Positions 1 to 44,420 of a DNA stretch of 51,743 bases are shown piece by piece. Made by a program: the position numbers and the translations under genes. The notes beneath the pieces were generated by a model that saw only the letters and a program-made list of their open reading frames with translations, did not search any database and had not been told where the DNA came from. Source of the stretch: Eremomyces bilateralis CBS 781.70 (taxonomy: Eukaryota); assembly GCA_010015585.1 (NCBI GenBank), contig ML975158.1; one strand, 5' to 3'. Every line of letters starts with the position of its first letter. The first letter of the stretch is position 1.

Positions 1-1045
1 TGATTGTGAATCAGATCATGAGTCAGACACACAGTGAGAGCAGGGCGGTGACAGAAAAATTCTTTCTATTATCGGTAATGATATTGGTATATGGATTTTT
101 CGTCCTTCAACTGTTTCCTCTGATGTGTCTAGAGCTTCCACGGCGTGGCTAGTTATGATCTATTGTAAGAAGGCCAGCTCTCAGGAGAAGTAAGGCGGGT
201 AGAGCGAAACCTGCCACCGCTTCCACAGCACGACCGCAGCGGTAGCAGGGCACGAAGTCTAGCACTGACAGGCGGCACGGGGTCAGAAGAGCCGCTTTCA
301 AATCGGACGGCGACCACCTCCTAACTACCCCATTGCCGCCCCGCTGCTGGGCTCCATGTCCTCGGTACCTGGTCCCGGGAGGTCGATCCATTCAGTGTAG
401 CCGTTTGTGAGGCGCCCTCTTGCGGAAGTCGATGAATGGGATCAGCTCACCGAGGAGAGGGAGCTAAGGGAGGAGGTAACAAAGAAGATGAGACGAAGAA
501 GTGGGCGGCGACGATGAAGAAAGAAGAGGCGAAGAATTGGGGGGGAGAGGCGGGAGTAGAATCGGAGGTATAGAGAAAAGGAGAGATGGAGGAGCAGGAG
601 AGGAAATGGGATCAGGATAGGTATAAGAGGAGACGGAAGCAACTCCGCGTAGAGCGGCAACCTCGGGCTCCATTGGAGCAGCTAATCTGGTTATAGCTGG
701 CCAATCCTGGAATGGGTGTATAAACATATTCCAATCACTATATGCCTCTGGAAATGGCAATGAAAAGTGTACATAATCCGAGCATAGTCAATGGTTAGAT
801 CAACGAGGCCGCGATGGATCAAAGACCACAGAAGCTCGGGCGCCATAGTCGTATTGGACACACCTAGCTAGTATATACCTCACCACCAAAACCATCTCCC
901 GCTCCAACTCGGCTATCGATCGGTCCCCAGAAAGGTATCGAACTCCGAAACAATGCTGCCGTAAGTCGTGACCAACGCCAACCGGAAAACTCCACCGCAT
1001 GCAATGAAAACGCCGGTCAAATACCCGGCGTTACTCTACCCTCCG

Positions 1046-2430
1046 CTACTCTCCTCCCCTTGGCCCCTGCCGCAACGGCATCATCGTCCTTATCGCCCCC
1101 TTAAAATGCACATACCGATCCGTCCGCGGATCATAGAACGCCACCGTATCGATCGTCGACCGCCCGTTCGTCCCGATCGTCTCCACCAGCCCCGTCACCA
1201 CCACCGTCCCGCGCGGCGCTTCCATATTTGCCTTGTCCTGCATCGACGCGACCGTGAGCGCGCGCCGGAAGATGCGGGTGATGGATTGGTCGTCGGTGCC
1301 GGGCATCTGGAGAACGCCGGGAAGGCGGGGGAATTTGCTGTTGGTTTCGGGGGTTTGGCCTTGCGCGTTGTCATTCGCGTCGTCGGCGGTGAGGCCGCCT
1401 GTGCGTGGGGTGTTTGGTCGCGGCGGGCCGTCTACGACGCGCTCGAAATCGACGTTAGTGCGGCGCTTTTTCTGGGTGATGCTGGGGGAGTCGGCGTCGT
1501 CGGACGGGTCGCCGGGTGCGGACAACATGCCTCTGAATCGCTTGATCTGCTGTTGGTAGATGGCCTGGAAGCTGTCGTAGGACGCCTGCAGCATGCCGAC
1601 GGGCATGAAGATGCGCTGGCGTTTGCGGTATTCTTCTTGGGAGAGCGTGCGGGCGGCCCAGGCGATGTAGTTTGGAGCGAATACAAGTCTGTCCGCTGTT
1701 AGATGTAGAACTTTCGAGCATGTTAGGACGCGGCTTACCCCGTCTGCTCATACTCCGGAGCTGGGCCGTCGGGGAAGACGACGTCGAGCCAGAACTTCCC
1801 CTTCTTGACATCCACCTGCCCCACCATCTTAAACCGTGGATCGTTCATCATCTGCGTCCGGACGAAATATGCGAGTGCCCCTGGTGCGGTCAGTCTATGT
1901 CCCTTGAGCGGAGCGTCTTACTCACGTCGAATATCCACCAACTTCTGCCGATCCGCGGCCAATTTTTTGAAATCCTGCCATTCCGGGTCCGATCCCTTGT
2001 AAAACGTCTTGGGCAGCTGTGTCGTGGGCCCGAGAGGGATGAACAGAAGATTTCCGTCGTTCATTACGATCGTCTCGCCTTCTTCGGGCGGCTGCCCTTC
2101 GCCCTCCTGCAGTTCCACTTCCTCTTCCTCCTCTTCCGTCTCCTCGATCTCGACTTTGAAGAAGTAGCCGAATGCGGATTGGACGGCCACGACCACTATA
2201 GCGGTTTTAAGCGCCCATATGGCCAACCGCCTACACCTATCAGCCTCGTTCATGGCGACGGCTCGAGGGACTTACCTGGTTGTGTACCGTGGCGAGGCAA
2301 ACTTGACGGTTTGGATATGCTGATGGCCCGAATCATTGTGGTATCTCCGGAATTGAGGGTGATAGAAGGTGAGTGGTCTTCGAGTGCGTGTCAACGCTCT
2401 GACGGCGCTTGAGGTTCGGTACATCCTCAT
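1046..2430 (-). CDS. Conserved fungal hypothetical protein, 4 exons, probably mitochondrial
   Basis: ATG at 2430 gives an Arg-rich presequence-like N-terminus (MRMYRTSSAVRALTRTRR). GT-AG introns (first 2275-2231) join the reading frames of ORFs 1918-2253 and 1046-1606 through an exon reading KGKFWLDVVFPDGPAPEYEQTG. Confidence 0.65.
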
Positions 2431-2768
2431 GAATAGCGGGAATGGAGGGTGAGGCGCATGTGTTGAGACGGGTTAGGACGGCATCCAGGAACATGTGGGT
2501 TAGCGTAGAATGGCAAACATAGAGGAGGATTTGAGGTGTAGAAAGTTGTGTACATAGATGAAAGCAACGTTAATCGGAATGACGACAAGAAATCAATCGC
2601 AAATCACCCGGTCGATGCCTTAAGTCTTAAGTCTTGAGGCTTGACGTTGCTCAGTTGATCGCCATCACGTGACCCTCATATTCCATCACGAAAGTTGAGA
2701 TTCCGACTCCTTCCCCCAGAATATATCCACCATCCCATCCGAGCAATCGAATAGCGTTTGTCGCGCCA

Positions 2769-3632
2769 ATGTTGGGATCCATGTGGTCCAAGTCCTTATT
2801 CTCAGCGCCCCTCCGCTCAATAGCAGGCGAATCTCTCCTCCGATTCCAGCCATGCCTCCGTCTCCTCCCCATCTCCCAGGTCCGAAACGCCGCCCACGCC
2901 GCTGAAGGACGAGCCAATGGAGCGAAGAAGGGAGCGGGAAAACGATTGGGGTTGAAAAAAGGAGCTGGTATGTTATGGGTGGACAGTTTGGCTGAAAAAT
3001 GCTGGGTTGGGGTACTTCTAACAATCGCAATAGAGGAACTCGTCGTGCCAGGCGTCATTATATTTCGACAGCGAGGGTCAAAATGGCATCCGGGCGAGAA
3101 CTGCGCTATGGGCCGCGACCACACCATCTACGCGACCGAGAAAGGATACGTCAAGTACTACAGAGACCCCAATCGGAATCCGAAGAAGAAGTACATCGGG
3201 GTGGTGTTCGAACGACATTGGCGCCTGCCGGTCCCCGTTGGTGAACCACGCCGACGACGTCTGGGAATGCTCGCCGTCCCTCGGGAGTCAGAAGGACAAG
3301 TGGGTTCGCTGAGCCCGTTGACACCCGCCGGTCTGGACGGAGAAGCCGCCGGACTACCCGGCGTGGCCGTCGCGGCAACATCCCCGGAAGAAAGCAGCAT
3401 GGGAGAGGGCGAGCTCGCCAAGCGCCGCAGACGAAAAGACTACGTGGTCCGCGAATCGAACTGGGAGATCGGCCGCACGGCCGAGAAGGCCGGGGTGACG
3501 GCGACGAAGTTCGTGCGCAAGGATCGGTTCCGCGCGTGGCGGCGGGCGGCGGCGCGACATCGGCGCATTTCGGAGACCAAGTCAGTGGGGAGGAAGGCGA
3601 AGAAGGGGAAACAGGGGAAGGTTAAGAAATAG
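2769..3632 (+). CDS. MRP7: Mitochondrial ribosomal protein bL27m
   Basis: L27 motifs GKRLGLKK and GVIIFRQRGSKWHPGENCAMGRDHTIYA; one 66 nt intron 2968-3033 (GTATGT...CTAAC...TAG). Confidence 0.93.
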   Translation: MLGSMWSKSLFSAPLRSIAGESLLRFQPCLRLLPISQVRNAAHAAEGRANGAKKGAGKRLGLKKGAGMLWVDSLAEKCWVGVLLTIAIEELVVPGVIIFRQRGSKWHPGENCAMGRDHTIYATEKGYVKYYRDPNRNPKKKYIGVVFERHWRLPVPVGEPRRRRLGMLAVPRESEGQVGSLSPLTPAGLDGEAAGLPGVAVAATSPEESSMGEGELAKRRRRKDYVVRESNWEIGRTAEKAGVTATKFVRKDRFRAWRRAAARHRRISETKSVGRKAKKGKQGKVKK

Positions 3633-4009
3633 GGGGGATAGGTGGGGTGGAAGTGAAGGCAGGCCGGGCGTGGATGGGGTTGGATGTCTATGCTTTGGTG
3701 ATGTACAATATTTTACAATGACTGTGAGGGATACGCGGTCGCTATGTACAATACAGGATTTGAAAGCAAATCATTCGCCGTTCCCTGCTATCGCTCGATG
3801 AATCCTGGAAACCAGCGGAATAAAGCGGTGATGTGCTTCCCCTCCAATGCTATCGGTGGCTATGGGGAATCCAACGCTCGAGCGAACTGAAGGACCCGAT
3901 ATGAGACCCAAGGTATCTGGACCCTGGACCATTCGAACCATCCCCTAAATCTCACCGCTGTGCCCAATTCAATTCTCAGTAATTTTGCTTCGATCGTCGG
4001 TGGCACAAC

Positions 4010-4865
4010 TCAAATCTTCAGAGATTTCAAAATCTGACTGTCAAAGACCGCCTTCGCAGCGGCACCGCCATGCTCCAGCGCAATCGCTCCGATGATGGCA
4101 TACATGGCCTGCGCAAGGACCGAATCAATACCCGATTCCTTAAGGTTGTCCGGCTACAAAGAAGTCAGCATTTTCACCCAGGGATCGTATATCTCAGCTG
4201 CGTACCATTCGAGGAGTCCATCTCACGACGTGGTTCAAACCATATGTCTCCGCGAGCGGGGCTATTCGCGTAGGACTCAAGATCTCCAATTTCCGGGCCG
4301 GTGACAAATTGTCCAATTGATCAAGGGCAGGGTGCGTGAAAGGCGTCCGTCCATAAGGGTCCGGAATAGGTGTGACAGCATGGCTCGGTTGTAGCAGTGC
4401 GAGTGACGTCTGCAGGTCCGCGATCCGTTTGCCTGCAACTGGTTAGTCTCTGGCGACGATTCCTTTCATTGTTCTCATACCCATATACGCTAATCGCGCG
4501 TTGTAACCCCGGGCGCCCTGATCGAAGCTCTTATGTGTGATGGCGATCCACCGCACCTCCTCCGATGGCACCAGTTCCGGTCTGCTCCCCAGAAATCGCC
4601 GGTAGAAGTCGTCGAGGACTTTCGGGTCGTCGTTCACAGTGAAAGGGAGGTTACTCCTCGACGCCCGTAGTCGCACGGGTGCCCGCAAAGAGGGAGGCGT
4701 CTGTTGCCATCGCGGACGATATGGCTCGTGTTCCCCTTGATTTGATTTTGCGGATGTTGAGAAGGGACATTTATAGAGTGCCCGTGTTGAGCTCGAGGCG
4801 GATTTAGGGAGACATCGTGATGGGAGTTGTCGCACGGCACATGCGACACGCGGAGTTGCCGACAT
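4010..4865 (-). CDS. MRPL15: Mitochondrial ribosomal protein mL57 (RNase III-like fold), 3 exons
   Basis: VNDDPKVLDDFY, WIAITHKSFDQGARGYNARLAYMG; spliced downstream exons read KRIADLQTSLALL and ESGIDSVLAQAMYAIIGAIALEHGG; stop at 4010-4012. Confidence 0.85.
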
Positions 4866-5275
4866 TGGATACCTTTCAGTGAAGAGAAGCGCAGGCTCCT
4901 TTCCAAATAGGAGTTTTCTAGGCTTAAGATAGCAAATGCACCCAAATCAAGAAACCAAGCGGATGGAAGACGTGAATGCGTGGATGTCCAAAAACTTGAT
5001 CGGCCAATCACATGCCATAGGTCGAGTCACGTGCTCTCAGAAAAGCTTTCCCACCTCGTATTCCGTAAGACAAAACACCAACGAACGAATGCCGAATGTA
5101 CCTAGGGATAGCTGGAGAAGGTCGGAGATTTCGACACTAGTTAAAGAGGAAAGCCAAGATCCCCTTCAAAAGGAGAGCATGTGAATATTTGTTAGATGTG
5201 TAAACGGCCAACTGTCATGTATTGTAGGAAGAAATTACGCCCCTGCCGCCGTTTGAGTGAGCAGATCTTAGCATA

Positions 5276-8200
5276 ATGAAGTTTGCAAAGTGCGTCTAAA
5301 CAAGCTCCTTTATTGCGGTCACCTTGATAACACTCAATTGCAGAGAACTTGAAGCGGAGCTGGTCCCAGAATGGAGGGCGAAGTACATGAATTACAAGGT
5401 ATCAAATGAACCCCCATGTGCATATTACGACATCACCACTAACAACGCGCAGGAAGGGAAGAAGAGGTTGAAAGCACTTGCTCGGGCGTACCGTAATCTC
5501 ACTGGAACACCCCGAGCAGCATTGAGCGCGAAGCGCAAAGGTATATTTACGCCTCGCTTCACAAACGACGCAATCCGTCCCCAAAATTTGCTTCAATCGG
5601 CCGAGGAAGACACTGCTAGGCGCAACTTCCCAAATCGAAATGCAGCGCGGACGCCAGACGCCGCATCTGCCAAATCTCCTGAGCGGAACTTAGCGACAGA
5701 GCCCCCGAATCCGATCAACGTCCCCGGCCGAGCAGCGGAGAAGCAGCCGCTCCACGAAAGCCCCGACTACTCCGGCTTCGGGAGATATGGAAGCATCATC
5801 GGTACCCCACCAGAAGAGAGCGACCTCCCCGAACTCCAGAAAGGGCTGCCGTCACTAGAACTTCCAGGCCCCGCGCTCCACTCGTCGGCAGCGTCGCATG
5901 CGTCGCGTGCGTCCAAAGAACAGCAGCAGGGCCCGGCTGTGTCTGGGGACGATCGACGAGGTCCGGGGGAGTTAGGGCGCACACCCACGACCGTGCTCGA
6001 GCCGATCGAGGCGCGGAGTCCGGCGCAAAATTCATTACGCGCTGGGACCGTGAATCCGTCGATTTTCAGGCGCTCGACAACGGCGGACCGTGACAGGCGG
6101 CCTTCGTTGCTGAGGAGGGTGACCTTAAGCGGACAGCCATCGACGCCATCCCACTCGCCTGACGTCCCGGTTGAAGCGCATCGGGAATTGGATTTCCGTC
6201 AATATGAGTTTCACCGCTTCCTTAACGAGCAACTGGATAAGATCGAGCTGTTCTACCGAGAGAAGGAGGTCGAAGCTACGGAACGTCTGGTTGTTTTGCG
6301 GCAACAGCTCCACATCATGCGAGATCAGCGATTACAAGAGCTGCAGAGCGCGAAGGGGGGAAATAAGTCTTCTTCCAACGAAACCGGCGATGCCAATGAT
6401 CCCCGATCGGGCGAGGCGGCAAGCTATTCTCAGAATGGCGAAACCAATCTACGAAATGTATGGACTAAGCCATTGGTCGCCGCCAAGGACCGAGTGAGCG
6501 GAAGGCGATTCGGGAAGACGACCCACGCCATGCAAGGCCTTGCCACTCCCGAAGGTCCCTCCGGAAACGACCTGAGTCGCGATTACACGCGCCGTTCCAC
6601 CGCTCCCGAGGTGCCGTACCGCACCGCCAAACCCAAGCTCAAGCTCGCCCTCCAAGAATACTACCGCGGCCTCGAACTGCTGAAGTCATACGTCCTCCTC
6701 AACCGCACCGCCTTCCGCAAGATCAACAAGAAATACGACAAGCTCTTGAACACCAAGTCGCCCATGCGGTTCATGAACGGGCGGGTGAACAAGGCGTGGT
6801 TCGTTCAGAGCGACGTGCTCGACAGGCATATCAAGGCGGTGGAGGACCTGTATGCGCGCTACTTCGAGCGGGGGAGCCATAAGATCGCCGCGGGGAAGCT
6901 GCGGGCGAAGATGGTGAAACATGGGGAGTTCGGGGGGAATATGTTTCGGAATGGACTGATGCTGGGGCTTGGGGCTGTCTTTGGGATTCAAGCTCTGGTT
7001 CGCGCCGCTATCTCGCTATATAGTGACGACGAGGACTTCGCTGAGCAGACGGGGTATTTGCTGCAGGTTCGTTTGGTCATGACCGCAATTCTGATACGTG
7101 CTAACGTCTCTAGATATATGGTGGCTACTTCATGATATTGGCGCACTTCTTCCTCTTCTGCCTTGCTTGTCGGTTTTGGGCGAAGTCGAAGATCAACTAT
7201 GTCTTCGTGTTCGAGTTCGATAACCGATCCCACTTGGACTGGCGACAAGTGACCCAGGTAAATCGATTGCAATGCTGCACATTCTTCAGACTAAACCGTT
7301 CTAGCTTCCTTCTTTCTTCACGCTCCTGTTGGGCCTGACCATGTGGTTCAATTTCGAGATCGTCCCTGGTGGAGAGACGCTATATCTCTATTGGCCGGTT
7401 ATTCTGATGGGCATCACGATCATCCTTATGTTTCTGCCAGTACCTTACTTTTACCACAAGACAAGGCAGTGGTTACTATATACCCTAGTAAGTCCGTACA
7501 TGATTGAGAGGGGCATGAACTTACCTTGCCAGTGGCGCCTCTTCTTCTCCGGATTATACCCCGTTGAGTTCCGTGACTTTTTCATGGGCGACATGCTCTG
7601 TTCTCAAACATATAGCATGGGTGTAAGTGGGGTTGAATCATCCTACCGGAAAATACTAATAAAACCCAGAATATCGAGCTCTTCTTCTGCCTTTACGCGC
7701 AGGATTGGGACGAGCCGCCGATGTGCAACTCGAACCACTCACGACTCCTTGGGTTCTTCACTACCTTGCCTGGCATCTGGCGCGCGCTTCAATGCCTTCG
7801 TCGTTATAAAGATACCCGTAACGTCTTCCCACACCTAGTGAATTTCGGCAAATATACGTTCACGATCCTGCAATACATGTCCTTGAGTCTATATCGCATA
7901 GATAGATCCACAGGATACCTAGCGCTCTTCATCGCCGTGTCTTCTATCAATAGTATATATTGCAGCATCTGGGACCTGGCAATGGATTGGAGTAAGTCTT
8001 CCACACCAACAGATGGCACCATGCTTACCAAACCAGGCCTCCTCGACCCCTACGCCCCCAACCGCTTCCTCCGAAAAACCCTCGGATACCGCCAACCCTG
8101 GATCTATTACACCGCCATGCTCCTCGACCCCATCCTCCGCTTCAATTGGATCTTTTATGTCATCTTCTCCTCCGACCTCCAACACTCCGCCCTCCTCTCC

Positions 8201-17359: not shown

Positions 17360-20300
17360 ACCACCAAAACTGCCAATGTGCCACACCACCACCTAATTAC
17401 ATAGAAATTTCGGGCGGAAATTACAGGTAATTACAAAAAGGGAGCATGAGATATTATTAAAAAATTCAGAAAGGGAAAATATGTGCTATGCTTGACGCTG
17501 TGCCTCGTTCAGATGGGCAGACCAACATATGAGATTTTTACACAGTGGGGTCCTACACCGATTGCATCCATACCGAGTTTTTGGAGCACTTTTCTTCCGC
17601 CCATTGGATCCTGCAGCCCCACGGATCGTATTAACAGAGAGCTCTGTCAGCGGTTTCCTCCTTTCCGGATCAGGCAATGCAGTGCGACCGGCTGTTAGAC
17701 AGGAAACATACTGTTTTGCGTGTTCAAAGAGCTTTTCAGGGGCACCATGGTAAGGGGATGGTAACCGGCCAACCGCACCACTGTAGATTGTAAGGTGATC
17801 CTGGTGATGCGTGGTGGGCGGCGCGGGAGTCATCGCGATCATGTATGCGTTACAGATCGCAGTCTCTACCAGATACAGAAACAGCGGTTTCCACGTCTTC
17901 TTGCACCGCCTAGCGATCGCCCACCGACACCGTAATTGGTCGGCTATATCTACTCCATTCATATTATGGTTGTAGTTGTTTATGAACTCGGGGATAGGGA
18001 GCGGTTTCCTGTATTCACCAGGCGCGAATAGCTGCTTTCGGACCTGGTCCGCAGAGCTGGAGTCCTTAGGCCTTCGTCGCTATATAGAAGTTAGTAAGTC
18101 AGTAAAACTTAAGGGCGGAATAGTGAAGCAGATAGAATGCCATGACACGGCTTAAGGCGTCCTAATATATATATATGAAATTTCATATATATTCTAACGC
18201 TTTGCGCCGTACCCAGGCATCTTATTTACTTTCTATTATAACCGGTATAGATATAAACCTACGCTGAGAAACAGTGGTCATAAAATAGACCAATTTCGCA
18301 TCCATCCAGGCGCACTGTAGGACTGTATTCGACTTATCAGTCGCCGTGTATAACGCATGGGCGTTCGCCTTTTTAGAATTGTATTTGGTCATCAAGTCTG
18401 AAAGGTCTGGATCAATATAATCCTGAAGAGGTTTATCCTTCAGAAGGAGCTTCTCCCGTTCAGTTTTGACGAACCGGACAGTCCCTGCAGCACCTATATC
18501 GAACTCGTTTCGTAGGACACGGAGGAGTTTGTTGGTGGTGGAGAGGTTATCAAGCCATACAGCAATAGGGCGCTCGGCTTTTGCACGCAGCGGGATGACG
18601 AGATCCAGGACAACAGCCTGCGTGGGGGTAAACTCGTACGGCTTCTTGACCTATATATTTCACTCGTTAGCCAAGGACCTCAAAAACACAATATTAGGAG
18701 AGAGACAGTGGTAGATATAGCCATATCCTGTACGGTATGGGCACCGTGGTTAGAGCCGTTTTCGCGGACTGAGACTTAGGAGCTGGTGTCATACACCACC
18801 TCCACTGGTGCGGAGATAACGCGTTTCCCACCATCTTTACGAAAGTATACTATTTTAGACCATGCTTACCTCTTCTCTATGCCGAACGGACCTGCGGTAT
18901 ACGCGTGTAGCCTCATATCCCACACGTATCCATGGAATGCAAGGACCTAGACCTTGTACCCTATAGGCGTGGGCTTCGAGGGGATATTCACGGTTTCCTT
19001 TGCCCGCCCAAGGAAGCGAACCATCGCCTCGTCTATCGCACAATAGGATCCAGGGCGCCAGAGTTCCTGGAATTTCAAGGTAAGGAACTTCACCATAGAA
19101 TGAACCTTCTCCAGAGGTGTTAACTTCTTTGGGGCTATAGGTATATGCCACGCGATATATCGATCAATCTGTTGCCAATGAACACGACCCATATACCGAC
19201 GAACCGTTGGGTGGAGTGGGAGATTAGGATTAAGCTCGTTCTGACACGGTCTGGATGCGCAAGGTCTGCGATTACCAAGTTCCATTAATCTAAACTGAAG
19301 AGAGAGAGAGAGAAGAAATCTCCCGGCACCTTTGTGCGCGAGATAGCGACTCTCCTCTCCAATGCCCTACTGCTGTGTTACCATGTTTGTTTGCTTCTCT
19401 GATATAATCCACCAGCCACGTCTTCAGCCACAACCAAGGGAACAGGCCGCAGGCCTGGGACCATAACACGTTCCAGTAATATTCCACGCGTGGTTCGCGA
19501 TGTAGACCCATATAGATCAAGATCGCAAGATAGGCGCGGAGATCCTCCTCCGTAACATCGGTCCATGGGCGTGGGCTGTTCAGTTCCTTCTCGGGTGCAT
19601 GGTGGGCGTGCAGGTTAGTACTCACACAGAGAGTATGGTAAAATTCTGTGGTAAAGATGAGGTCTATGATCGCTCCAGGATCGTGAAACCTGACGGTATC
19701 AGGCAATATACCATGCGAAACCTTCTCCGGTATTATTAAGGGATCGAAATCGACGATAGGCGATGGGTCTGGGGGCGGTGGATTCTGGGTGTTTTTGGGG
19801 GCTTTTGGTACTGTAGGCGTGCTCTCAGCTTGAGCCTGTTTCCCCCTCTTTCCTCCTCTCTTCGCCTGCGGTTTGCCTTGAGATAGGAGTTCTTGAGATA
19901 GTGTGTCTTGAGAGGTCTGTATCTTAAGATCTCCATCGTTTTCCTGCGACACGTTGACGCGATCTAGATCTTCACCTTCACCGATCGCACAACCTGTCTT
20001 GAGGAGCTCTTCGCGGGTCTCAAAATGGGCCACCTCACCGGTAGGTACGAGATCCACGTCGAAAGGCTTCGAAATACCGAAAACACCCATATTCAATACC
20101 AAAAACACCCATAGTCGAAACGAATTGATTAAATTTCCTGTCCTCAGACGCGTCTGTATACAATTTGGGAGGGAATTTGGTGGGAGCTTGGCAAATACAG
20201 GGATCCTGGTCGAAACCCCGGTCTTTGAGCACTGCAGCCATGAAGGGGATAGTCTTCTACTTTTGTCGCCTTTCACAACAGTTTTGATACCTTTGAGGGG

Positions 20301-20400
20301 GAAAATCTCACCAGCCTTACAAAATTTCTAGAATTACAGTAATTTACGTATTACAAAAATTTTCCGTTACATGCCAAGTTTACAGGCGTTTTTTGGTGGG
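17360..20400 (-). mobile_element. Degenerate piggyBac-like transposon (DDE_Tnp_1_7 pseudogene, about 17486-20090); boundaries approximate
   Basis: Motifs LRAYLAILIYMG...YYWN, AIDEAMVRFLGR...PSKPTPIGYKV*, VWLDNL, IGAAGTVR, MNGVDIADQLR and a Cys-rich C-terminus (YGCNRCRTPLC...CWSAH); stops and an insertion interrupt the frame. No TTAA-flanked termini found. Confidence 0.88.
19242..19468 (-). mobile_element. Solo LTR (227 bp) inserted in the piggyBac transposase
   Basis: TG...CA ends with imperfect inverted termini (TGACACGGTC / GACCATAACA) and a 5 bp target duplication CGTTC at 19237-19241 and 19469-19473; removal restores YYWNELNPNLPLHP in frame. Orientation is inferred. Confidence 0.85.
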
Positions 20401-20586
20401 CCCAAGGAATTTCCGTGAAGAACGAACCAACTCGGCTCTGGCATCACGAGATACAGAAATCCTGTGATCTGATTGGCTCGAAGAAGATGTACTGATCGCA
20501 AAGAGTGCGTTTTTGGAGATGTTGCTGGCGATTGGCGCATATCTAGATACGTATACAAATGCATATACTGTGTGAAAACGATGCGG

Positions 20587-22494
20587 TTAGATCATCTCCT
20601 CCATCGCCATCTGGCTGTACAAGGTATCTTCCTCCATTCGCCCCATGATCTCATCCTGCGATGGAAGCACCATCTTAGTCCCGTCGCGCTTCATGGTCCT
20701 AGCCAACCGGAGGGCCCGCTTGTTCATATAGATGTACATCATCTTGTCAACGCGAAGCGCATCTAGGCGTGCCCATTTTGAGTCCACCAGGAAGTTCTGG
20801 ATTGAGAATGATCGTTCCGATGGGACTGAGCTTGATGGGGCGCTGAAAACGCGTAACGCAATAGAACTGAGCCATTTCATCTGAAACATACCACCCGCGC
20901 ATCTCCAATATAGGATGGGATCCGCCTCCCGTCGCATGAGGAAGGCGTTCTTCGCGAACGCGGTATCCGGGCTCTTGTAGCTGTAAAATTCATCGCAGAA
21001 CGCCTGCGCATCCTGTTCCTCGTGACAAAACATCTTCTTGACGAACTCATACATAGAGGTAAAGTCTTCGGGTGAAATTTGAGCCGTGCGATGACTTGGA
21101 TGGAGGTGATAAGCAAGGTGATGGAGTGGTATACCAACCTGCTGATTATATCGCTTTTGGACCACGCGATCAAGCTCTGCATGGAGGATAGGATCGCGTT
21201 CCTGGAAACCCACTCCGCTGATTGCCTTCCTAAGGGCTGCCCACCTCTCTATCACGGTCCCAATATCAAGGCGTGTAGATTCAGTCTGTACGAGGAGCTT
21301 TGAAACAGGACCGATGATCGCGATGGTCCTATCGAGCTCCCTCCAGAGCTCTGTGCCTAGGATCTTGCTTTGGTATTCAAGGAGGCGTCGTTTCACTGCG
21401 TCGCCGATCGTGATATCGTCTAATTGATCCTGGAAGAAGTCCTGGATGGCTTCCTTGTTCGCCTTGAGCGAATTCAGGCTCCCGACGTGACTTCCCCATC
21501 GCGTCTCGACTGATGCGACAAGGACCCGCGTCTTCCCGTATCGCTCCCTCTGCCTAAGGCGTATCTCGCTCATTACTTTCGAGGAGGATCGGATATCGCG
21601 TATGAGGTCCTTGAACAAGTCAAAGTGATGCTTAAAACGAGGCATCGCAAGGATATCTTTGATGAGGAGGGCGAGACTGTGTGCCTGACACGGAATACAG
21701 AGTATATGCCTGAGCTCTGGATCTTCACCAATCAGTCTCCACAGCTTACGCATAGAGGAACAGGTATCTGTAGAGAGACTGTTTACCCTCCTCATCTGTC
21801 CACCAATTGTATCCTGTAGGACTTCGCGTACGTATTCGAGAAGGAATTTAGCGTCGAGGGTCGCCGTCCGAGGTGCTGGTCTTGTCTGTATCATAAGCGA
21901 ACCGAAGGTATCGTGCGTGATTGAGAAATTAATCGTTCGATCGCCTGCACGGTTCTGAGACTCATCAATTGTGATATTTAACTGGAAGTCATTACCAAAC
22001 CCTGATAAGACAGTATCCACTTGATTCCTCGTCTCTGTGTATAGTTGATCGAGGAGCGGTCCAGAGACCGTAGGGCATGATGGGACTTTGAAGGAAGGGC
22101 ATAGCCTCTTCACAAAACGGTGGAAATCCTCGTCTTCCACGATGTTAAATGGTGATCCAGACATCACCACAAATTTGGTAAGGAGGAGCTCTAGGGCTTC
22201 TTGTTCCCGTTCGCTTGTAGAGGTAGTGGAGAACCCGCGACTGGAGAAGATAGTCGTCTGGCGTAAAGATGAGGTACATGATGGGGTAAGGGTTGTACAG
22301 GAAGATAGATCTGTAGACGTAGAGTCATCAGTAGCCTTCTGATTGATCGCTGGACATTTAGGGAGGTGCTTTTTCATCTCCGTGACGTTTTTGGTGCGCT
22401 CCCATTTGCAGTGCTTACAAGCCCAACGGTCGGCGGCCGTTGGCTCGAAATTCTTGTAAAAGATGGCATCGCGATTTTTTCCAACCTTCGGCAT
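20587..22494 (-). CDS. hAT-family transposase, uninterrupted 635 aa (BED-like finger, DUF659-type core, hAT dimerisation domain)
   Basis: WACKHC...HLPKC, ITIDES, STDTCSSM, CQAH, TRWGS, SSVPSERSFS. TIRs not identified. Confidence 0.9.
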   Translation of the reverse strand: MPKVGKNRDAIFYKNFEPTAADRWACKHCKWERTKNVTEMKKHLPKCPAINQKATDDSTSTDLSSCTTLTPSCTSSLRQTTIFSSRGFSTTSTSEREQEALELLLTKFVVMSGSPFNIVEDEDFHRFVKRLCPSFKVPSCPTVSGPLLDQLYTETRNQVDTVLSGFGNDFQLNITIDESQNRAGDRTINFSITHDTFGSLMIQTRPAPRTATLDAKFLLEYVREVLQDTIGGQMRRVNSLSTDTCSSMRKLWRLIGEDPELRHILCIPCQAHSLALLIKDILAMPRFKHHFDLFKDLIRDIRSSSKVMSEIRLRQRERYGKTRVLVASVETRWGSHVGSLNSLKANKEAIQDFFQDQLDDITIGDAVKRRLLEYQSKILGTELWRELDRTIAIIGPVSKLLVQTESTRLDIGTVIERWAALRKAISGVGFQERDPILHAELDRVVQKRYNQQVGIPLHHLAYHLHPSHRTAQISPEDFTSMYEFVKKMFCHEEQDAQAFCDEFYSYKSPDTAFAKNAFLMRREADPILYWRCAGGMFQMKWLSSIALRVFSAPSSSVPSERSFSIQNFLVDSKWARLDALRVDKMMYIYMNKRALRLARTMKRDGTKMVLPSQDEIMGRMEEDTLYSQMAMEEMI

Positions 22495-23086
22495 AGCTAT
22501 ATGAACATGAAAAGTAGGTAGATCGATAGATCTCGTCGAGACGAGTAAATAGATGTATATGAATTTAAATTTGGAGCTGATTCAGTCGCATTACCCGGAA
22601 GTTAGGTAGTTGATGAATAAAATGACCCCAAACCCAAACATGAAAATTCGTATCTTTCTATCCCTACCGATGATGAAAGATTAACTATTCCTAATGATGC
22701 ATGGATATACCAAAATATATATCGAATCGAAGCTCCAGATGAGGCCAATAATAATACATTTAAATATTTGGGTTTGCAATCCAAGTAGTATATCTAGAGT
22801 TATTAGCAGGTGAAGTAAAATGCTACAATTTTGGCAGTAGTTGCTTGGGGCAACGGATCACATCATGCACCATGGCGAGAAGACGGCCAAAATGGGAGTA
22901 GGCAACGCATATACTTTTCATATCGATCTGTATATCAAAATGTAGCTCTATATCTGAAGAAGTATACTAATCGGTATATTATTAAAATCAAGTGTAACTT
23001 AGTTTAGGAGAGTTACGGAGTGCGCAAGAGATCATGTACCTTTTTTTCAGGAATTTATGCCTGAGGCAGAAAGGCATCAATAAAAT

Positions 23087-38549: not shown

Positions 38550-39229
38550 TCACTCCACCGCAAACCGCTTCTCATCCTCCCCCTTCCTCAACCACCACTC
38601 AATCCCCACACTAAACAACGCAAACCCCCCGGCCCCCACCGCCGCCCCCCGCGGCCCCGTCTTCCGCGCCAAAATTCCCCCCGCGAACGCCCCCGCCCAG
38701 ATCCCGTTCCACATGTCGTCCTTCGCCCGCAGCGCGCTGACGCCGCACTCCAGCCCGCTGAACAGGAAGCCGACGGTGCCGAAGTTGCGGCCGGTGGAGA
38801 GGGCGGCGCGGCCGGTTTCGGCGAAGCCGAGTTTGAGTTGTTGGCGGAGGGGGAGGGTGGAGATTTCGGGGGCGGTGGGGGAGAGAGGGGTGTCGTAGCG
38901 CATCTGGGTGGGTGTTAGGATATGGTGGAGGAATGAAGGGGGCCCAGAGGTTAGGGAGTTGGAGTAGACCTACCGCGGAGGTGAACACGCCGAACATCGC
39001 TCCTAATCCCGCGCCCATGACCGCCGCCATGCAGCTCTTAAACGCACAACTCTCGCCGGCGCCCTCGATCTGCGGGTGATGGTTAGCATGCGGAGGTACG
39101 AGGCTGGACTCGGGGTTGAAGGAGGCGTACCGCTTTCACGTATTGTTGTTCTTGGTGGCTCATGCCTGCCGCCGGCCCGCCCCCCGGCCGCTGGGGGAAG
39201 GGGAAGCCGCTGCCGCCCGGAAGAGACAT
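38550..39229 (-). CDS. TIM22: Mitochondrial inner membrane translocase Tim22, 3 exons
   Basis: ESCAFKSCMAAVMGAGLGAMFGVF, RNFGTVGFLFSGLECGVSALRAKDD.WNG; both conserved Cys are present. Confidence 0.92.
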
Positions 39230-39771
39230 GGTAAGTATCTAGTAATGGGGGAGGTGCTGGGTGAAGTCGCGGTTGGAAAAAGATGATCTTGAGACTTGGA
39301 TTGATCTGGATCAATGTTGATGTAGGTTTTGTGCCTGAGGTTGTAAGGCAAACACAGTTTCGCTTGTGAGGCTATAAGGCACCCACTGCTCTCTTGGGGG
39401 AAGAAATTGATGGCCCATACAAAGCGTCTTGGCACGAATTACATCACCAGTTTTCCAGAGCTCTACAAATCACAACTAACAGATTACAAACTCCAATCTA
39501 CTACAACGCCACTGTCTTCTCTTCATGGAGCGTCCAATTACGCCAGATAGGCCAATTAAGCGCCAAGAACATAACACACCCGAAAAATCTCGCTTTTTCG
39601 AAGCGTATGATAGCCGTACCGAAGGTCAACCATTGTCCGATATTCTCCGCAAGCTGGATCTTTCTCGACGTACAGCAAACCGTTGGCTAAGTGAACGACG
39701 TCGCCTTGGAAAAGAGGCATACAGACGAACCCGGCCCAATAGCGACAAATTAGGGCGAAACCGCGCAATTA

Positions 39772-41461
39772 ATAATAATAATAAGAATCAATTTAACGTA
39801 CTATCTGGATCCCTTTCGGGTCTATGAGCACGATATTCTATCTGGTCTGCCGCGGGCAAAAGTTTCCCCGTAGCCCTGAGGCTGCGGGTACATAAAATCC
39901 CGCCTCCTCCCTTTAGTAGACTATCTCAAACGTTTATCATCTATCCGTAAGAGTCGGTGTTTCCGCCTACGCGGAGAGCTTATTCTGGCACGTCGTGGAG
40001 GAACTGGAACGGTTTCCAGTCCTCTATTACCTCCTCCTCAACTTCCTTGGCCACCCGGTATTGCTCTAGGCCTCCCGCATCGATCAGCCACCTTGCTGCG
40101 TGGCGCACCTTGTCCCTGTCATGCAATATCCTCTTAAAGTCCGTTGTTCCAGCTCGTTGGAGGAGCTCGATCCTCTGGTCGGTCCGCTGCGGGCAAAATG
40201 CAAGGAGCAGGTCATCATATTGCGTTTATATACAACAGCAGGTTTCGCCAGTCCACTTATCCAGACTCCTGCCACAGTTTTCAAAGCTTGCTCGTTGCTC
40301 CGCTTGTCCGCAGTTACCCCCCCAGGCAAAAAGGGTTCCTGCCTGTGTAACGCCTGTTTGCTCCATAAGCATACATCACCAGCGTTCTGACCTAAGCGGC
40401 CAGTCCTGTCTTTTTGTATACCGACACGCGCATCCGTTCTCTCGAGCCACGTAGTAGTCTCTCCGGCCGGGGTTTGATCCCGCCTGCTTTCAGGTTCACC
40501 GAGGGTCAGAGCCCATTGAAGGGATGAGGTCCTTGGAGCCAGCAGTGGCTACCACGCACTACGCCCCGCGACTCCTGTAAACAGTCATCGTTTCGCGTTG
40601 CCCATAGAGGTCTCCCTCTGATGGGCCGACCGTGTCTTGCAGGATGAGGCAGGTTTGAGCTTGTAGCTCGATTATGCAGTTCAGGGTTTTCGCATGCGTT
40701 CCGCACCGGGCAACGCATGCAGCCTCATCCCACTAACCAAGCTCGAGTCCTCCATCATCTTGAGTTGGCCCGTGATTCTCCCATTGTATAGATCCGAGCG
40801 ACGGGTCTGTGTCTCCATCGAGCCTCCACCAGGAGCATACCTGTGTTTCCCCTCTATCGACTGGCCTGTAACTCCAGTTCCGTAAGCTGTCGTGCTTGTC
40901 GCGCCCGGTGAGCTCGTGTCGTTGTGGTATTAACAGGTTCCGATAGAGGGGCCTTAACAAGCGCTCCCGTTGCGAAGAGGCCCTCCGGCCTTAACAGAGT
41001 TCGCCTAGATTTATACAAGTTAGCCTTAACGAGTTCTTTAGAATTAGGATTGTTCCAAACCCTCGCTACACGCAGCTCGTTGCTCACGCATAACCCCAGA
41101 GTAGGCGAGCCTGAGGGTGTCCTGTTAGAGGCCTAGGACGCGTCCTCATCCACCTAATAATAAGTCAGGCTTCCGGATCCAGCTGCGAGCTAGATAGACC
41201 CCTATCGGATGGTTCTCGTATCCCTTTGTATCCCTCAAGAGGCCTCCCTTGATGAAAGGACACCGTGTCTAAGCGGAGGCAGTAGACACAGTCGTGCTGG
41301 TGTTGGTGGTATGGCGATACCACGCTCAACGCCTGCGACCTGCACGCGCGACGCGTGCATCTCTCTCATCGCCACTGCACTTAGCCATTAATAGAGAACT
41401 CTTCTCTATCAATGTTTCCACCCGCGGCGACGTGGACGCGTGCAGTTGGACTTCGCGGGCT
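39772..41461 (-). mobile_element. Internally deleted non-LTR retrotransposon (Tad1-like LINE derivative), 1.69 kb
   Basis: 11 bp target duplication CCGCGCAATTA (39761-39771 and 41462-41472); (TTA)n 3' tail; ORF2 C-terminal remnant at about 39980-40215 (AFCPQR...AGTTDFKRILHD...AARWLIDAGGLEQYRVA); no RT or endonuclease core. Confidence 0.85.
41375..41460 (-). ncRNA. HDV-like self-cleaving ribozyme
   Basis: P1 GCCCGCG/CGCGGGU, P2 CUGCAC/GUGCAG, P3 GCG/CGC, L3 UCCACGU, P1.1 CC/GG, 13 bp P4, J4/2 GCUAA with the putative catalytic C at 41384. Confidence 0.9.
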
Positions 41462-42910
41462 CCGCGCAATTACATCTCCTCAATTAGATGCTATTCTTTC
41501 TTCAAATAATCCTGTTCGGGAGCTTCCATACGAAGCTAACATCTCGCATTTTGACCTTGATATCACAATAGGGCGCAGCCTCCGTGAGAATCTACAAACA
41601 CGACGAGATGCAGGGCGTTTTGAACGAGAGCAAGGCAAACCTGTATCCGCTGAGAATCGCAAGTTGCGGGAAGTATACGGTCGCTTTGGGATGGAACAAC
41701 CCTTGATCGGTTATTGGGACTCCATTGAATTTACAGACGAGATGCATTACGATCCTACGGAACAAGCACGAGAGCGTATCATTCGCCAAAAGGGCACGGG
41801 CTACCGACCGGAGAATATCCAAAACCGGCCAGCGACACAGGGCATGGTGCTCCATATTGCTGCGTCTTGCAATTGGTATTCCAAAAGCAGCCTCAAGTTC
41901 TATCACGACAAGTCTGAAGATCCTCCAAAGCCGCAAAAGCCAGGGAAACCTAGGCAAAAACAGACTGAAACGGACGAACAGTTCTCCCAACGATTACAAG
42001 ATTGGAAGGCGAAACTGCCCCACAAAGTTGAGGTCAAACAGAAGGGGAACTCCATGACACAGGAGTATTACGCCAAACACATCCTCCCTGCTAATATTGC
42101 GCGTATTGAGGCCGCCCGTTTACACCATCGCGGGTCGTTTGGTGCAGACGTTTGTGGGCCACTTTTGACTCTTCAGGAAGATAACGATCCATCGCACGGT
42201 ACACAGTCAAATAACGTCGCATCTTCATTAAAGCATATCAATTGGATCGATTGCTTACAACATCCATCACAATCTCCAGACCTGAGCCCTATGAAAGCGC
42301 TCTGGGGGATTCTGAAACAGAGGGTACGCAAGCGGGTATGGCAGACCATGGAAGAGCTCAAACAGATACTGATTGATGGATGGGATAAAATCACGATGGA
42401 GGAAGTACGTAAGAGAATTGCAGAGATGCCATACAGATGCCATCTAGTTGTAGACAATAAGGGAGACTTTATTAAGACTCCATTGTGGTAGACAGCGATA
42501 TATCAATATATTTGGTGGTGGGGATTCAGTGCCAAGACGCTTTGTATGAGCCATCAATTTCTTCCCCCATGGAGGCCTGAATGCAGATGATGAGATCAGA
42601 TCTCACCAAACCAGAGAGTGTATTGACTGGCTACTGTAAGTATGATATTTATTGATAAATCCCGACGTTGGTTGAGAAACAGCATAGCTGTCTGGCTAAT
42701 ACCACAGTTTGCAGCTTCAATACAGCTAAGCACGGTCACCGACATATCAAGCCTCATTCAGACACAGTAGAAGATTAAGAGAAGAGAATAAAGCGAGTGG
42801 CATTGCTAGTATCGTAATAAAAGAAAATCCCCCAACACCTACGCATTCCCAGATATCCGTACCCGCCTATACGCCGTGCAATGCCGCCTCAGTCACCCCC
42901 TATCTACAAA

Positions 42911-44420
42911 CTAGACGTACACCTTCTTCGCGTCCCGCGGGTGACACTCCATCGGGCAGTAAGGGCACTTGAACCGCGTGCCTTTGCTGATCTTCTCCAG
43001 GGACTCTTTGGCGATGACGTGGCCGCACGGGAGCAGCATGGGTGGGTTCGAGTCGGTGGACTGCTCTTTGGAGACGGGGCAGACGAAGACGGAGTGGAAA
43101 TGGTATGCAGGAGGAAGGGGGATCTCAACCTAGCAGAAAGAATATTAGTCTCGGTGTGAAATAGTCGTTTAGGAGAGCAACATACCGGCAACTCCTCCCG
43201 ACTCGTCCACTCCGCCTTCCGGTTCGCTAGGATCTTCTGCACCCGCATCAACGGCGGCAACGCCACCGCCCCCGCCGTCGCCGCGACGTACAGCGGACTG
43301 TCCGCGCTCAGCTCCAGCAGCGAACAGAACTCCCGCGTGAACGACCCCGCCACCTCCTCCCACGCACTCGCGGCGTCGAAGAGGTGCCGGTACGGACTCG
43401 TGGCTATATTTGGCCAGAACGCCAGCGCCGCGGAGAGCTGGTGGATTTCCCGCGCGTAGCGGCCGGCGAAGGAGGCGAGCTCGGAGCGGGCGTACGCCCA
43501 GGCGCGGAGCGGGAGGGTGTGGTCGCCGTGCTCTTGCGCGGAATCGACGAATTGGCGGATGAATTCGAGGCGGCAGAGCTCGAATTCGAGGTTGCTGCCG
43601 CGGGTTTCGAGGACGTGGCTGTTGCGGCGGGCCCAGTCGATGGCGGGGAGGAGGTTGTGGTTGATGCGGAGGTCGTGGAGGATGTGATGCATGGCGGCAA
43701 ATTCTTGTTGGAGGGAGGTGGGGGCGAGCTCCGCGGCGGCTGGGTCCTCGTCCATGGCGTCGGTGTCGTCTTCTTGACTGCTGAATAACGAGTGGGAACT
43801 TAACAGGGAGGCACCGGCGGCGCTTATGTCTGGGAGATCGTTTAGATGGGGGGATTTCGACTTCGCTTCGAGTATAAAGGTGTTCGCCACGTTGAACTGG
43901 CCTTCGCGGAGGAGGTGCATAGCTATGGCCCGGTTGAGTAAGTGCGGTTGTGAAGAGACTACATCGTTTGAGGCACTGGGAAAGGGTTTATCTTTGAATC
44001 TCTAACGTCCATGTCAGTACACTATTGTCAAGGGGCAGCCACTATCAGTAGAGGTCGAGGGAGGATACCTTGTTTAAGGCCTTCTCATACGCTCCCAGGG
44101 CGTTGTGCATGCCTCGCAGAGCATGTGGTTTTTTGGGAACATTGCTGTAGAGCTTGTCGAGGGATTGCTTCGATAACGATTGTAGTTTGACGAGGGTTGT
44201 GGCAGCGTTTGAGGGATCTATACAGATCAGCGTCGTGATATCTAGAGGAGGGCTCAGACGGACCAGCAGTAATGGTTCGTTTGGCATTCTCCACCATATC
44301 TATGAGGACTTGGACTTCGTCGATCGCGGCTTGTAACGTATGATCTTTCCTCTGCATATCCCCCAAGCATGTATGGAGGTCGGCCAGCCCGGCTGGCGGA
44401 GGCGGATCGGCGGAAGGCAT
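42911..44420 (-). CDS. RMD5: GID/CTLH complex RING subunit Rmd5/Gid2, multi-exon
   Basis: [15 protein letters not shown] (LisH), AIDWAR...[11 protein letters not shown] (CTLH), FTREFCSLL...SPLY (CRA), [13 protein letters not shown]...[12 protein letters not shown]...FKCPYCP (RING). Confidence 0.92.

Follow-up and report, generated by a model that had tools for sequence, protein, structure and literature searches.

We analysed a 51,743-nt stretch of contig ML975158.1 (assembly GCA_010015585.1) from Eremomyces bilateralis CBS 781.70, referred to below as the window, in which a Tc1/mariner transposon is split by a minus-strand insert at positions 39772-41461. This insert is probably (we put it at about 0.7) a MINE-type chimeric retrocopy in two parts: a template switch would have joined a non-coding RNA headed by a predicted hepatitis delta virus (HDV)-like ribozyme to the tail of a long interspersed nuclear element (LINE). 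In related elements on metagenome contigs the non-coding module has a fixed end, the LINE parts begin at scattered points and these parts come from several lineages, a combination that argues for repeated template switching and not for one deleted family copied in trans.

A fixed module terminus joined to variable LINE parts

Metagenome contigs were scanned with 22 nt of the ribozyme core (P3, L3, the 3' strand of P1 and GG), which gave at least 121 loci, including two GC-rich chance matches (L011 and L092). The longest element, L026 (7,042 nt, with the second open reading frame, ORF2, at 3341-6738), served as the reference for mapping 23 elements whose ends are defined (1.9-6.5 kb). The first ~1.4-1.85 kb is common to all 23 and runs to a single terminus, ...ATATAACTACCTGCC. 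The 15 elements that belong to the LINE lineage of L026 continue from this terminus at 15 different entry points, scattered from reference position 2361 to 6586, and the 45 listed loci in which the terminus plus 70 nt can be read represent 40 junction classes, of which 35 are singletons and 5 are pairs. The LINE part opens with CC or GCC, matching the terminal GCC of the module, in 8 of the 14 cleanly mapped junctions; the junction of L033 was mis-registered and was excluded from this microhomology count.

The partner LINE also varies. L037 and L041 carry a second LINE with endonuclease and reverse transcriptase (RT) and a TTA tail, which shows no DNA-level alignment to the L026 lineage, likewise an endonuclease and RT LINE but with AAT-type tails, and the partner in L040 and L021 is a lineage 65-66% identical to L026 in ORF2 DNA. 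A poly(A)-tailed element takes up 0.56-1.6 kb behind the same ribozyme-headed module in L004, L006, L007 and L051; the last 1.6 kb of L004 encode an RNase H domain (E 1.7e-11) and belong to a LINE clade other than that of the window's partner. Judged by these sequences, one module is joined to at least three LINE lineages in the relatives.

On the same contigs, seven solo LINE 5' ends start at ~1503-1510 of the reference after unrelated DNA, without the module, and a covariance-model search found no ribozyme beside any of them. The module stands ahead of a full-length LINE only in L026 and L053 among the listed loci (7 solo against 2 module-headed 5' ends), and the ORF1-like region of these two elements matched no Pfam family. 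In the relatives, the ribozyme therefore belongs to the non-coding module and not to the LINE.

The relatives as a whole (L001-L121) look as if mutated by repeat-induced point mutation, with AT-rich flanks and G-to-A and C-to-T changes in the ribozyme. Open reading frames (ORFs) of at least 100 aa are nearly absent from ten long related elements, in which two were found.

Composition of the window copy

The LINE-derived part of the insert comprises 436 nt (40207-39772), made up of the tail, the 3' untranslated region (UTR) and 75 ORF2 codons. An exhaustive phmmer search with the translation of 39980-40375 returned 63 matches at E<=1e-3, all confined to the last ~80 residues, and four of them are the extreme C-termini of proteins of 1,112-1,150 aa with Exo_endo_phos_2 and RVT_1 domains. 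Longer relatives of the ORF2 piece had also been sought in a word-indexed protein search, where none of the 149 candidates reached E<=0.01; the exhaustive search found them. The main related LINE lineage carries the GGGATCC...ACGTTAA motif of this 3' UTR at its own 3' end. When the query and its 63 matches (64 proteins) were used in tblastn, the best value outside 39950-40400 was E 0.08. An ORF2-like reading just upstream of 40207 (C-C-C-I-stop-T-Q-Y-D-D) was considered and rejected as a coincidence; it aligns with the module terminus of the relatives, and the true LINE continuation is different.

The remainder of the insert is the non-coding module, which is WEIRD-like by analogy. Counting from 41461, two blocks of the element (1-365 and 812-1141) share 67-84% identity with more than 100 metagenome copies, and the last ~100 nt before 40208 are also homologous to the relatives. 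The module ends in ...GAUGACCUG at 40208 (...GACCTG), in register with the fixed terminus ...ACCTGCC of the relatives, and the window junction 40208|40207 falls exactly at this homologous terminus. A consensus fold of the last 140 nt of the module contained two short, modestly supported stems but nothing that matches a known motif, and Rfam returned a chance row only for this 3' end. No head of the short interspersed nuclear element (SINE) type was found: tRNA, 5S and 7SL gave no Rfam match at E up to 10 over 39000-42500.

A sequence-only reading of this DNA had described a non-autonomous, bipartite element with a ribozyme head and a LINE 3' recognition region, and the division into a module (41460-40208) and a LINE part (40207-39772) bears this out. 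We likewise found neither RT nor endonuclease and no long ORF in the middle, as it had stated (no Pfam family in six frames of the insert, ORFs of at most 154 aa). Its further claim that the insert keeps both LINE extremities holds for the 3' end, with its ORF2 codons, 3' UTR and TTA tail, and fails for the 5' ribozyme, which belongs to the module. The supposed decayed LINE interior has to be given up, as the middle is the non-coding module and no consistent ORF is present in this region in the window copy or in the relatives. The expected single inherited deletion junction is contradicted, in the relatives, by the fixed module end and varying LINE entry points. A partner LINE sharing both ends, which had also been foreseen, does not agree with the seven module-free LINE 5' ends of the relatives, where ribozymes are confined to module heads. 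The proposal of a family, rather than a single copy, was correct, and the family is multi-copy in both the source contigs and the metagenome.

A predicted HDV-like ribozyme at the module head

In a 121-nt Rfam search, the head of the module matched two families over their full length and in the same register, RF00094 with 33.5 bits (E 9e-4, cut-off 50) and RF02682 with 32 bits (E 8.7e-5, cut-off 44). At the gathering level Rfam gave no match over the whole window. The fold was assessed in an alignment of 98 sequences, consisting of the window copy and 97 distinct relatives; L053, in which P4 is wholly lost, and L120 were omitted from the 99 distinct sequences found. This alignment displays the nested double-pseudoknot order of P1, P1.1, P2, P3 and P4, and 94.7% of the cells of the 31 proposed pairs are paired, compared with 34-54% when the partners are slid by 1-3 columns. 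Pair 1:41 is G.U in 91 of the 98 sequences and A-U in 5, and the J4/2 cytosine (C77) is invariant. Independent support for the fold comes from three subfamilies, whose P4 sequences are wholly different and yet each form a hairpin, and which show compensated changes in P2.

The third subfamily (L120:246-343, L077:1-80 and L032:1-79) is 95-96% identical to the window over those bases of the first 49 nt that align (40-49). Its P4 hairpin is short and GC-rich, and in P2 a compensated change turns a U-A pair into A-U.

A covariance model built from the alignment detected only the known copy in the whole window (next best E 0.18), and in 79 loci it placed ribozymes solely at module heads, apart from two degenerate second copies. 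By its modelled structure, its full-length sub-threshold Rfam matches and its position, this is a real ribozyme of the HDV type for which self-cleavage is predicted, and it is presumably catalytically active.

The position of the predicted cleavage site coincides with the 5' end of the elements. Among the 115 listed loci with at least 31 nt upstream, the family head (at most 3 mismatches) starts exactly at G1 in 112. The flanks upstream of G1 are unrelated AT-rich DNA, the most alike pair being identical at 22 of 30 positions, and the base preceding G1 in the listed loci is most often A (55) or T (36) and less often G (13) or C (8). A direct repeat of 12-16 bp, with the second copy right after the LINE tail, was present in 24 of the 58 listed family loci searched (at least 1.2 kb downstream), five weaker repeat rows (10-12 bp, with no tail before them) having been excluded. 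The duplication abuts G1 in 21 of these 24 relatives, with one extra base in two and two extra bases in one. Tails of the AAT, TTA or A type immediately precede the duplications, and the duplications themselves often begin in a tail-like manner, with ATAATA.

Copies in sequencing contigs of the source organism

Contigs of four sequencing runs were aligned to 39300-42700 of the window; two of these runs, X4 and X6, carry the labels of two other organisms. Two X3 contigs and one X4 contig follow the window as far as 40207 and then diverge into LINE ORF2. The diverging sequence reads in frame C-G-S-P-R-Q-S-L-Y-Y before L-L-A-F-C-P, which is the zinc-knuckle-like motif of the ORF2 relatives, and is the one alternative continuation readable at 40207 in the source organism. 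At the other end, four X1 contigs with differing continuations stop at 41460. Summed X1 contig depth is 21,000-42,800 over 39756-40211 and 950-3,600 over 40212-41465, with ~170 for the two X1 contigs that bridge the insertion junctions; these sums give no copy number and are taken only to mean that the family is multi-copy and that the LINE tail is far more abundant than the module. Considered together, the X1, X3 and X4 contigs indicate that the family is present in the source organism, that other copies also start at the cleavage site and that the LINE shares only 39773-40207 with the insert.

Other module copies (two contigs in X1, one in X3) lack the 38 bp at 40653-40690 of the window and have TA instead, an indel variant. 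Run X4 has a match to 39776-40207 with 3 differences, as well as two pieces of the module (region 40851-41258), and X6 matches 39773-39956 with 1 difference. Such near-identical pieces imply that the family is either very young or common to close relatives. One X3 contig runs left from the tail at 39778 into a long ATT repeat, which suggests another copy that lies in, or tail to tail with, a trinucleotide repeat.

Insertion site, host transposon and surroundings

The feature coordinates are collected in Table 1. The inverted ends of the host transposon measure 46 bp (39395-39439 and 42524-42569) and are 95.7% identical. After in-silico removal of the insert and one repeat, the host is 1,474 bp long and contains a single uninterrupted ORF of 421 codons from 39525, in which HTH_23 and DDE_3 were matched in Pfam, each under its curated cut-off. 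The sequence-only reading had noted a host transposase without stop or frameshift and a perfect 11-bp duplication, both of which we recovered. Its view that the element was inserted as is also stands, in agreement with the canonical junction, the perfect duplications and the intact host. A second copy of any part of the insert was not found within the window. Runs X1 and X3 contain a host paralogue, ~83% identical and without the insert, in which a contig links 39679 to 41462 via 81 different letters.

Table 1. Features of the insert, its ribozyme and its host transposon (window positions).
Feature	Position or sequence	Strand	Basis or remark
Host Tc1/mariner transposon, split by the insert	39395..42569	+	Inverted ends, sub-cut-off domains, ORF uninterrupted once the insert is removed
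Target-site duplication, left copy, CCGCGCAATTA	39761..39771	.	Identical to 41462-41472
Insert	39772..41461	-	1,690 bp, between two perfect 11-bp repeats
LINE-derived (TTA)4T tail	39772..39784	-	Direct reading of the sequence
LINE 3' UTR, 195 nt	39785..39979	-	Flanked by stop codon (39980-39982) and tail
Last 75 codons of LINE ORF2 and stop	39980..40207	-	phmmer matches; open codons 40207-39983
Non-coding 5' module, 1,253 nt, WEIRD-like by analogy	40208..41460	-	No Pfam family; minus-strand ORFs of at most 154 aa
HDV-like self-cleaving ribozyme (predicted)	41372..41460	-	Cleavage predicted 5' of G1 (complement of 41460)
Ribozyme P1	GCCCGCG/CGCGGGU		7 bp, G1.U wobble
Ribozyme P3	GCG/CGC		3 bp
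Ribozyme L3	UCCACGU		
Ribozyme P1.1	CC/GG		
Ribozyme P4			12-bp hairpin; long and AU-rich in the window copy
Ribozyme J4/2	GGCUAA		
Ribozyme P2			9 bp, one bulge
Extra single base (A, element strand) between duplication and G1	41461..41461	-	One extra base also in 2 of 24 relatives
Target-site duplication, right copy, CCGCGCAATTA	41462..41472	.	Identical to the left copy; diverged host paralogue without insert realigns from 41462

The gene content of the window is fungal, with SPX/EXS, oxysterol-binding protein, dynamin, and hAT and piggyBac-like transposases. Two minus-strand DNA-transposon ORFs lie side by side in a lower-GC stretch at 19290-22581: a piggyBac-like ORF (19290-20327) with DDE_Tnp_1_7 and a hAT-like ORF (20587-22581) with a dimerisation domain and a DUF659 match slightly under its cut-off. 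The right neighbour of the host transposon is a CTLH-domain gene (42904-44001, minus strand) directed towards the insert; as speculation only, read-through from this gene would yield the module in sense, from which the ribozyme could release it.

Mechanism and alternative explanations

In the mechanism that we favour, a LINE RT would begin target-primed reverse transcription at the 3' end of a LINE RNA and copy 436 nt of it (tail, 3' UTR and last 75 codons). It would then jump to a second template, the 3' end (...ACCTGC/C) of a separate non-coding RNA of 1.25 kb, and copy this module RNA through to its very first nucleotide. That nucleotide would have been set by the HDV-like ribozyme, cutting the module from a longer transcript and leaving a defined, uncapped 5' end, and the product would integrate with the 11-bp duplication and one extra base. 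We infer template switching as the joining step, and likewise the way in which the module RNA gains its 3' end. A template-jumping RT is favoured by the fixed acceptor end, the scattered donor points, the short microhomology and the single duplication around the whole.

Several observations weigh against this interpretation of the insert. Regarding the joining step, five pairs of copies have the same or nearly the same junction, and some chimeras may thus be propagated whole; no solo module that could supply a free 3' end occurs among the 45 listed relatives with a readable terminus; and the variable-junction pattern comes from relatives only 67-84% identical and not from the source genome. 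Regarding the ribozyme, both Rfam scores lie under the gathering thresholds, which places the sequence outside these families by the Rfam threshold, and an Rfam search over 3.5 kb at E up to 10 returned two chance rows and missed the ribozyme. Covariation is modest, with double changes in 5 of the 31 pairs and a value of 0.053 compared with 0.044 for shuffled alignments (none of 500 shuffles reached it), and the fold test loses weight in that the search pattern predetermined columns 22-43 and the aligned sequences are closely related. Finally, the precise 5' end could also come from an internal promoter.

This last point leads to the possibility that the HDV-like fold is non-catalytic, that an internal promoter starts transcription at G1 and that the structure has a function in protein binding or translation. 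Cleavage and initiation are not distinguished by precise 5' ends alone, the sub-cut-off Rfam scores fit such a fold, and in L1Tc the same 77 nt serve as promoter and ribozyme, according to PMC3185411. We nevertheless hold it to be quite improbable, given that no defining element is missing (G.U wobble, P1.1, and a J4/2 cytosine that is invariant in 98/98) and that the helices are maintained by different sequences in the three subfamilies. Even less probable is an internally deleted LINE of the R2 SIDE/NARTc type, with the ribozyme as its own 5' end, which decayed and was then copied in trans with one inherited junction. Ribozyme-headed deleted derivatives are known for R2 and L1Tc (PMC6765202), the element is multi-copy in X1 (depth 950-3,600 against ~170, which is not a copy number) and some junctions are paired (5 pairs among the 45 listed relatives). 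This scenario is however already contradicted in the relatives by LINE 5' ends that lack the module (7, against 2 that have it), by the occurrence of the same module on at least three LINE lineages and by the 40 junction classes in 45 listed copies with an unchanging module end; in addition, the middle has no detectable LINE coding remnant, and the relatives are equally free of ORFs there.

It is unlikely, too, that the module is a captured leader, such that chimeras of module and full-length LINE are the autonomous masters and the short forms arise by copy-choice or deletion to the module/LINE boundary. In L026 and L053 the module does directly precede a full-length LINE that has ORF1-like and ORF2 regions, and the lack of a solo module among the listed relatives is in agreement with this. 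An internal acceptor site would be required, though, and enzymes of this kind reportedly jump end-to-end to a free 3' end (Bibillo and Eickbush 2002, cited in PMC6765202, are said to have found this); moreover, one boundary is used with unrelated LINE lineages and solo LINE 5' ends exceed module-headed ones, 7 to 2. Retrotransposition of a spliced LINE transcript, with the module end as the fixed donor and cryptic acceptors within the LINE, is hardly conceivable. A single donor would likewise give fixed upstream and variable downstream breakpoints, but splicing is excluded by the junction dinucleotides: AG precedes the downstream breakpoint in 0 of 15 cases on the reference LINE, and no GT follows the module end in the longest element. 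It would also demand 15 different acceptors in 15 elements, and the module joins LINEs that never held it.

If the insert is a template-switch chimera as proposed, it provides a testable answer to the question of what sets the 5' end of MINE-like chimeras and offers a reason for the abundance that the 5' partner RNA can reach although no gene for it is recognisable. It would give HDV-like ribozymes a new role in fungal retroelements, at the head of the acceptor RNA of a template switch and not of a LINE. The occurrence of the module on at least three LINE lineages, together with the CC/GCC microhomology, makes these chimeras a natural data set for studying how LINE enzymes jump between templates. 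Annotators would class such copies as internally deleted LINEs, and both partner and mechanism would then be misstated.

More tentatively, and with rather more doubt than confidence, the module might be an undescribed selfish "hitchhiker" RNA without a gene of its own, living only in chimeras and spread by the template-jumping RTs of several unrelated LINE clades. Were this true, the ribozyme would free the module from any read-through transcript, the conserved GCC terminus would be a preferred landing site, and spread would need no SINE-like recognition of the 3' end. WEIRD, considered in 2007 a housekeeping non-coding RNA of unknown function, would then be a member of a fungi-wide family.

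Comparison with known systems

The predicted ribozyme shares with the HDV family (RF00094, RF02682), to which the CPEB3 ribozyme also belongs, the nested double pseudoknot, the G.U wobble, the L3 sequence UCCACGU and J4/2 GGCUAA with its conserved C. It differs in its sub-gathering scores (33.5 against 50 and 32 against 44), in the bulged P2 and in the long AU-rich P4 of the window copy. A literature search, which had most subscription journals outside its scope, found no HDV-like ribozyme linked to WEIRD/MINE or to fungal LINE chimeras.

MINE elements, on which Fudal et al. are said to have reported in 2005, are the closest parallel to the joining of the two parts. In Magnaporthe grisea/oryzae, a full-length 1.1-kb non-coding WEIRD is followed by 230-5,461 nt of the LINE MGL (Gogvadze et al. 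2007, PMC2104539). They are flanked by repeats of 10-20 bp, and 33 of them use 28 junction sites, where a GCC motif is found; no solo WEIRD is reported there, nor any microhomology, and the joining is explained by template switching. The window element and its relatives resemble this description in having a complete non-coding 5' RNA of ~1.1-1.25 kb and a 5'-truncated LINE 3' part inside one duplication, and in being multi-copy; in the relatives, many LINE entry points, GCC at junctions and the lack of a solo 5' module among the listed loci are further parallels. Unlike MINE as described there, the window module is headed by an HDV-like ribozyme and, in the relatives, several LINE lineages serve as partner; the word "ribozyme" is absent from PMC2104539. 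The published MINE/WEIRD primers MNR2, WEIRD125-forward and WEIRD967-reverse (PMC3978060) had no match in the window at up to 3 mismatches, which is a weak test because it covers primers only, and the best window matches of the two WEIRD primers, 11-13 of 20, are at shuffle level. Compared in this way, by description and primers, the element appears to work like MINE, with no sequence identity to MINE or WEIRD found at the primers.

Similar to mammalian template-switch chimeras of the U6-L1 type, as cited in PMC2104539, an acceptor RNA would here have been copied whole and its fixed 3' end fused to a variably truncated LINE within one duplication-flanked insertion. The acceptor in U6-L1 is a polymerase III small nuclear RNA, whereas here it would be a 1.25-kb RNA with a 5' end set by the predicted ribozyme.

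Ribozyme-headed LINEs with deleted non-autonomous derivatives are represented by R2 with SIDEs and L1Tc with NARTc (PMC6765202, PMC3185411). As in these pairs, the predicted HDV-like cleavage site is the first retrotransposed nucleotide and non-autonomous copies retain the ribozyme. SIDE and NARTc take both ends from an autonomous partner, and in the relatives studied here the seven solo LINE 5' ends have neither module nor ribozyme. The ribozyme of R2 and L1Tc is the 5' end of the LINE itself and the short forms are internal deletions, whereas here LINE copies without a ribozyme occur in the relatives and the short forms look like fusions of two RNAs.

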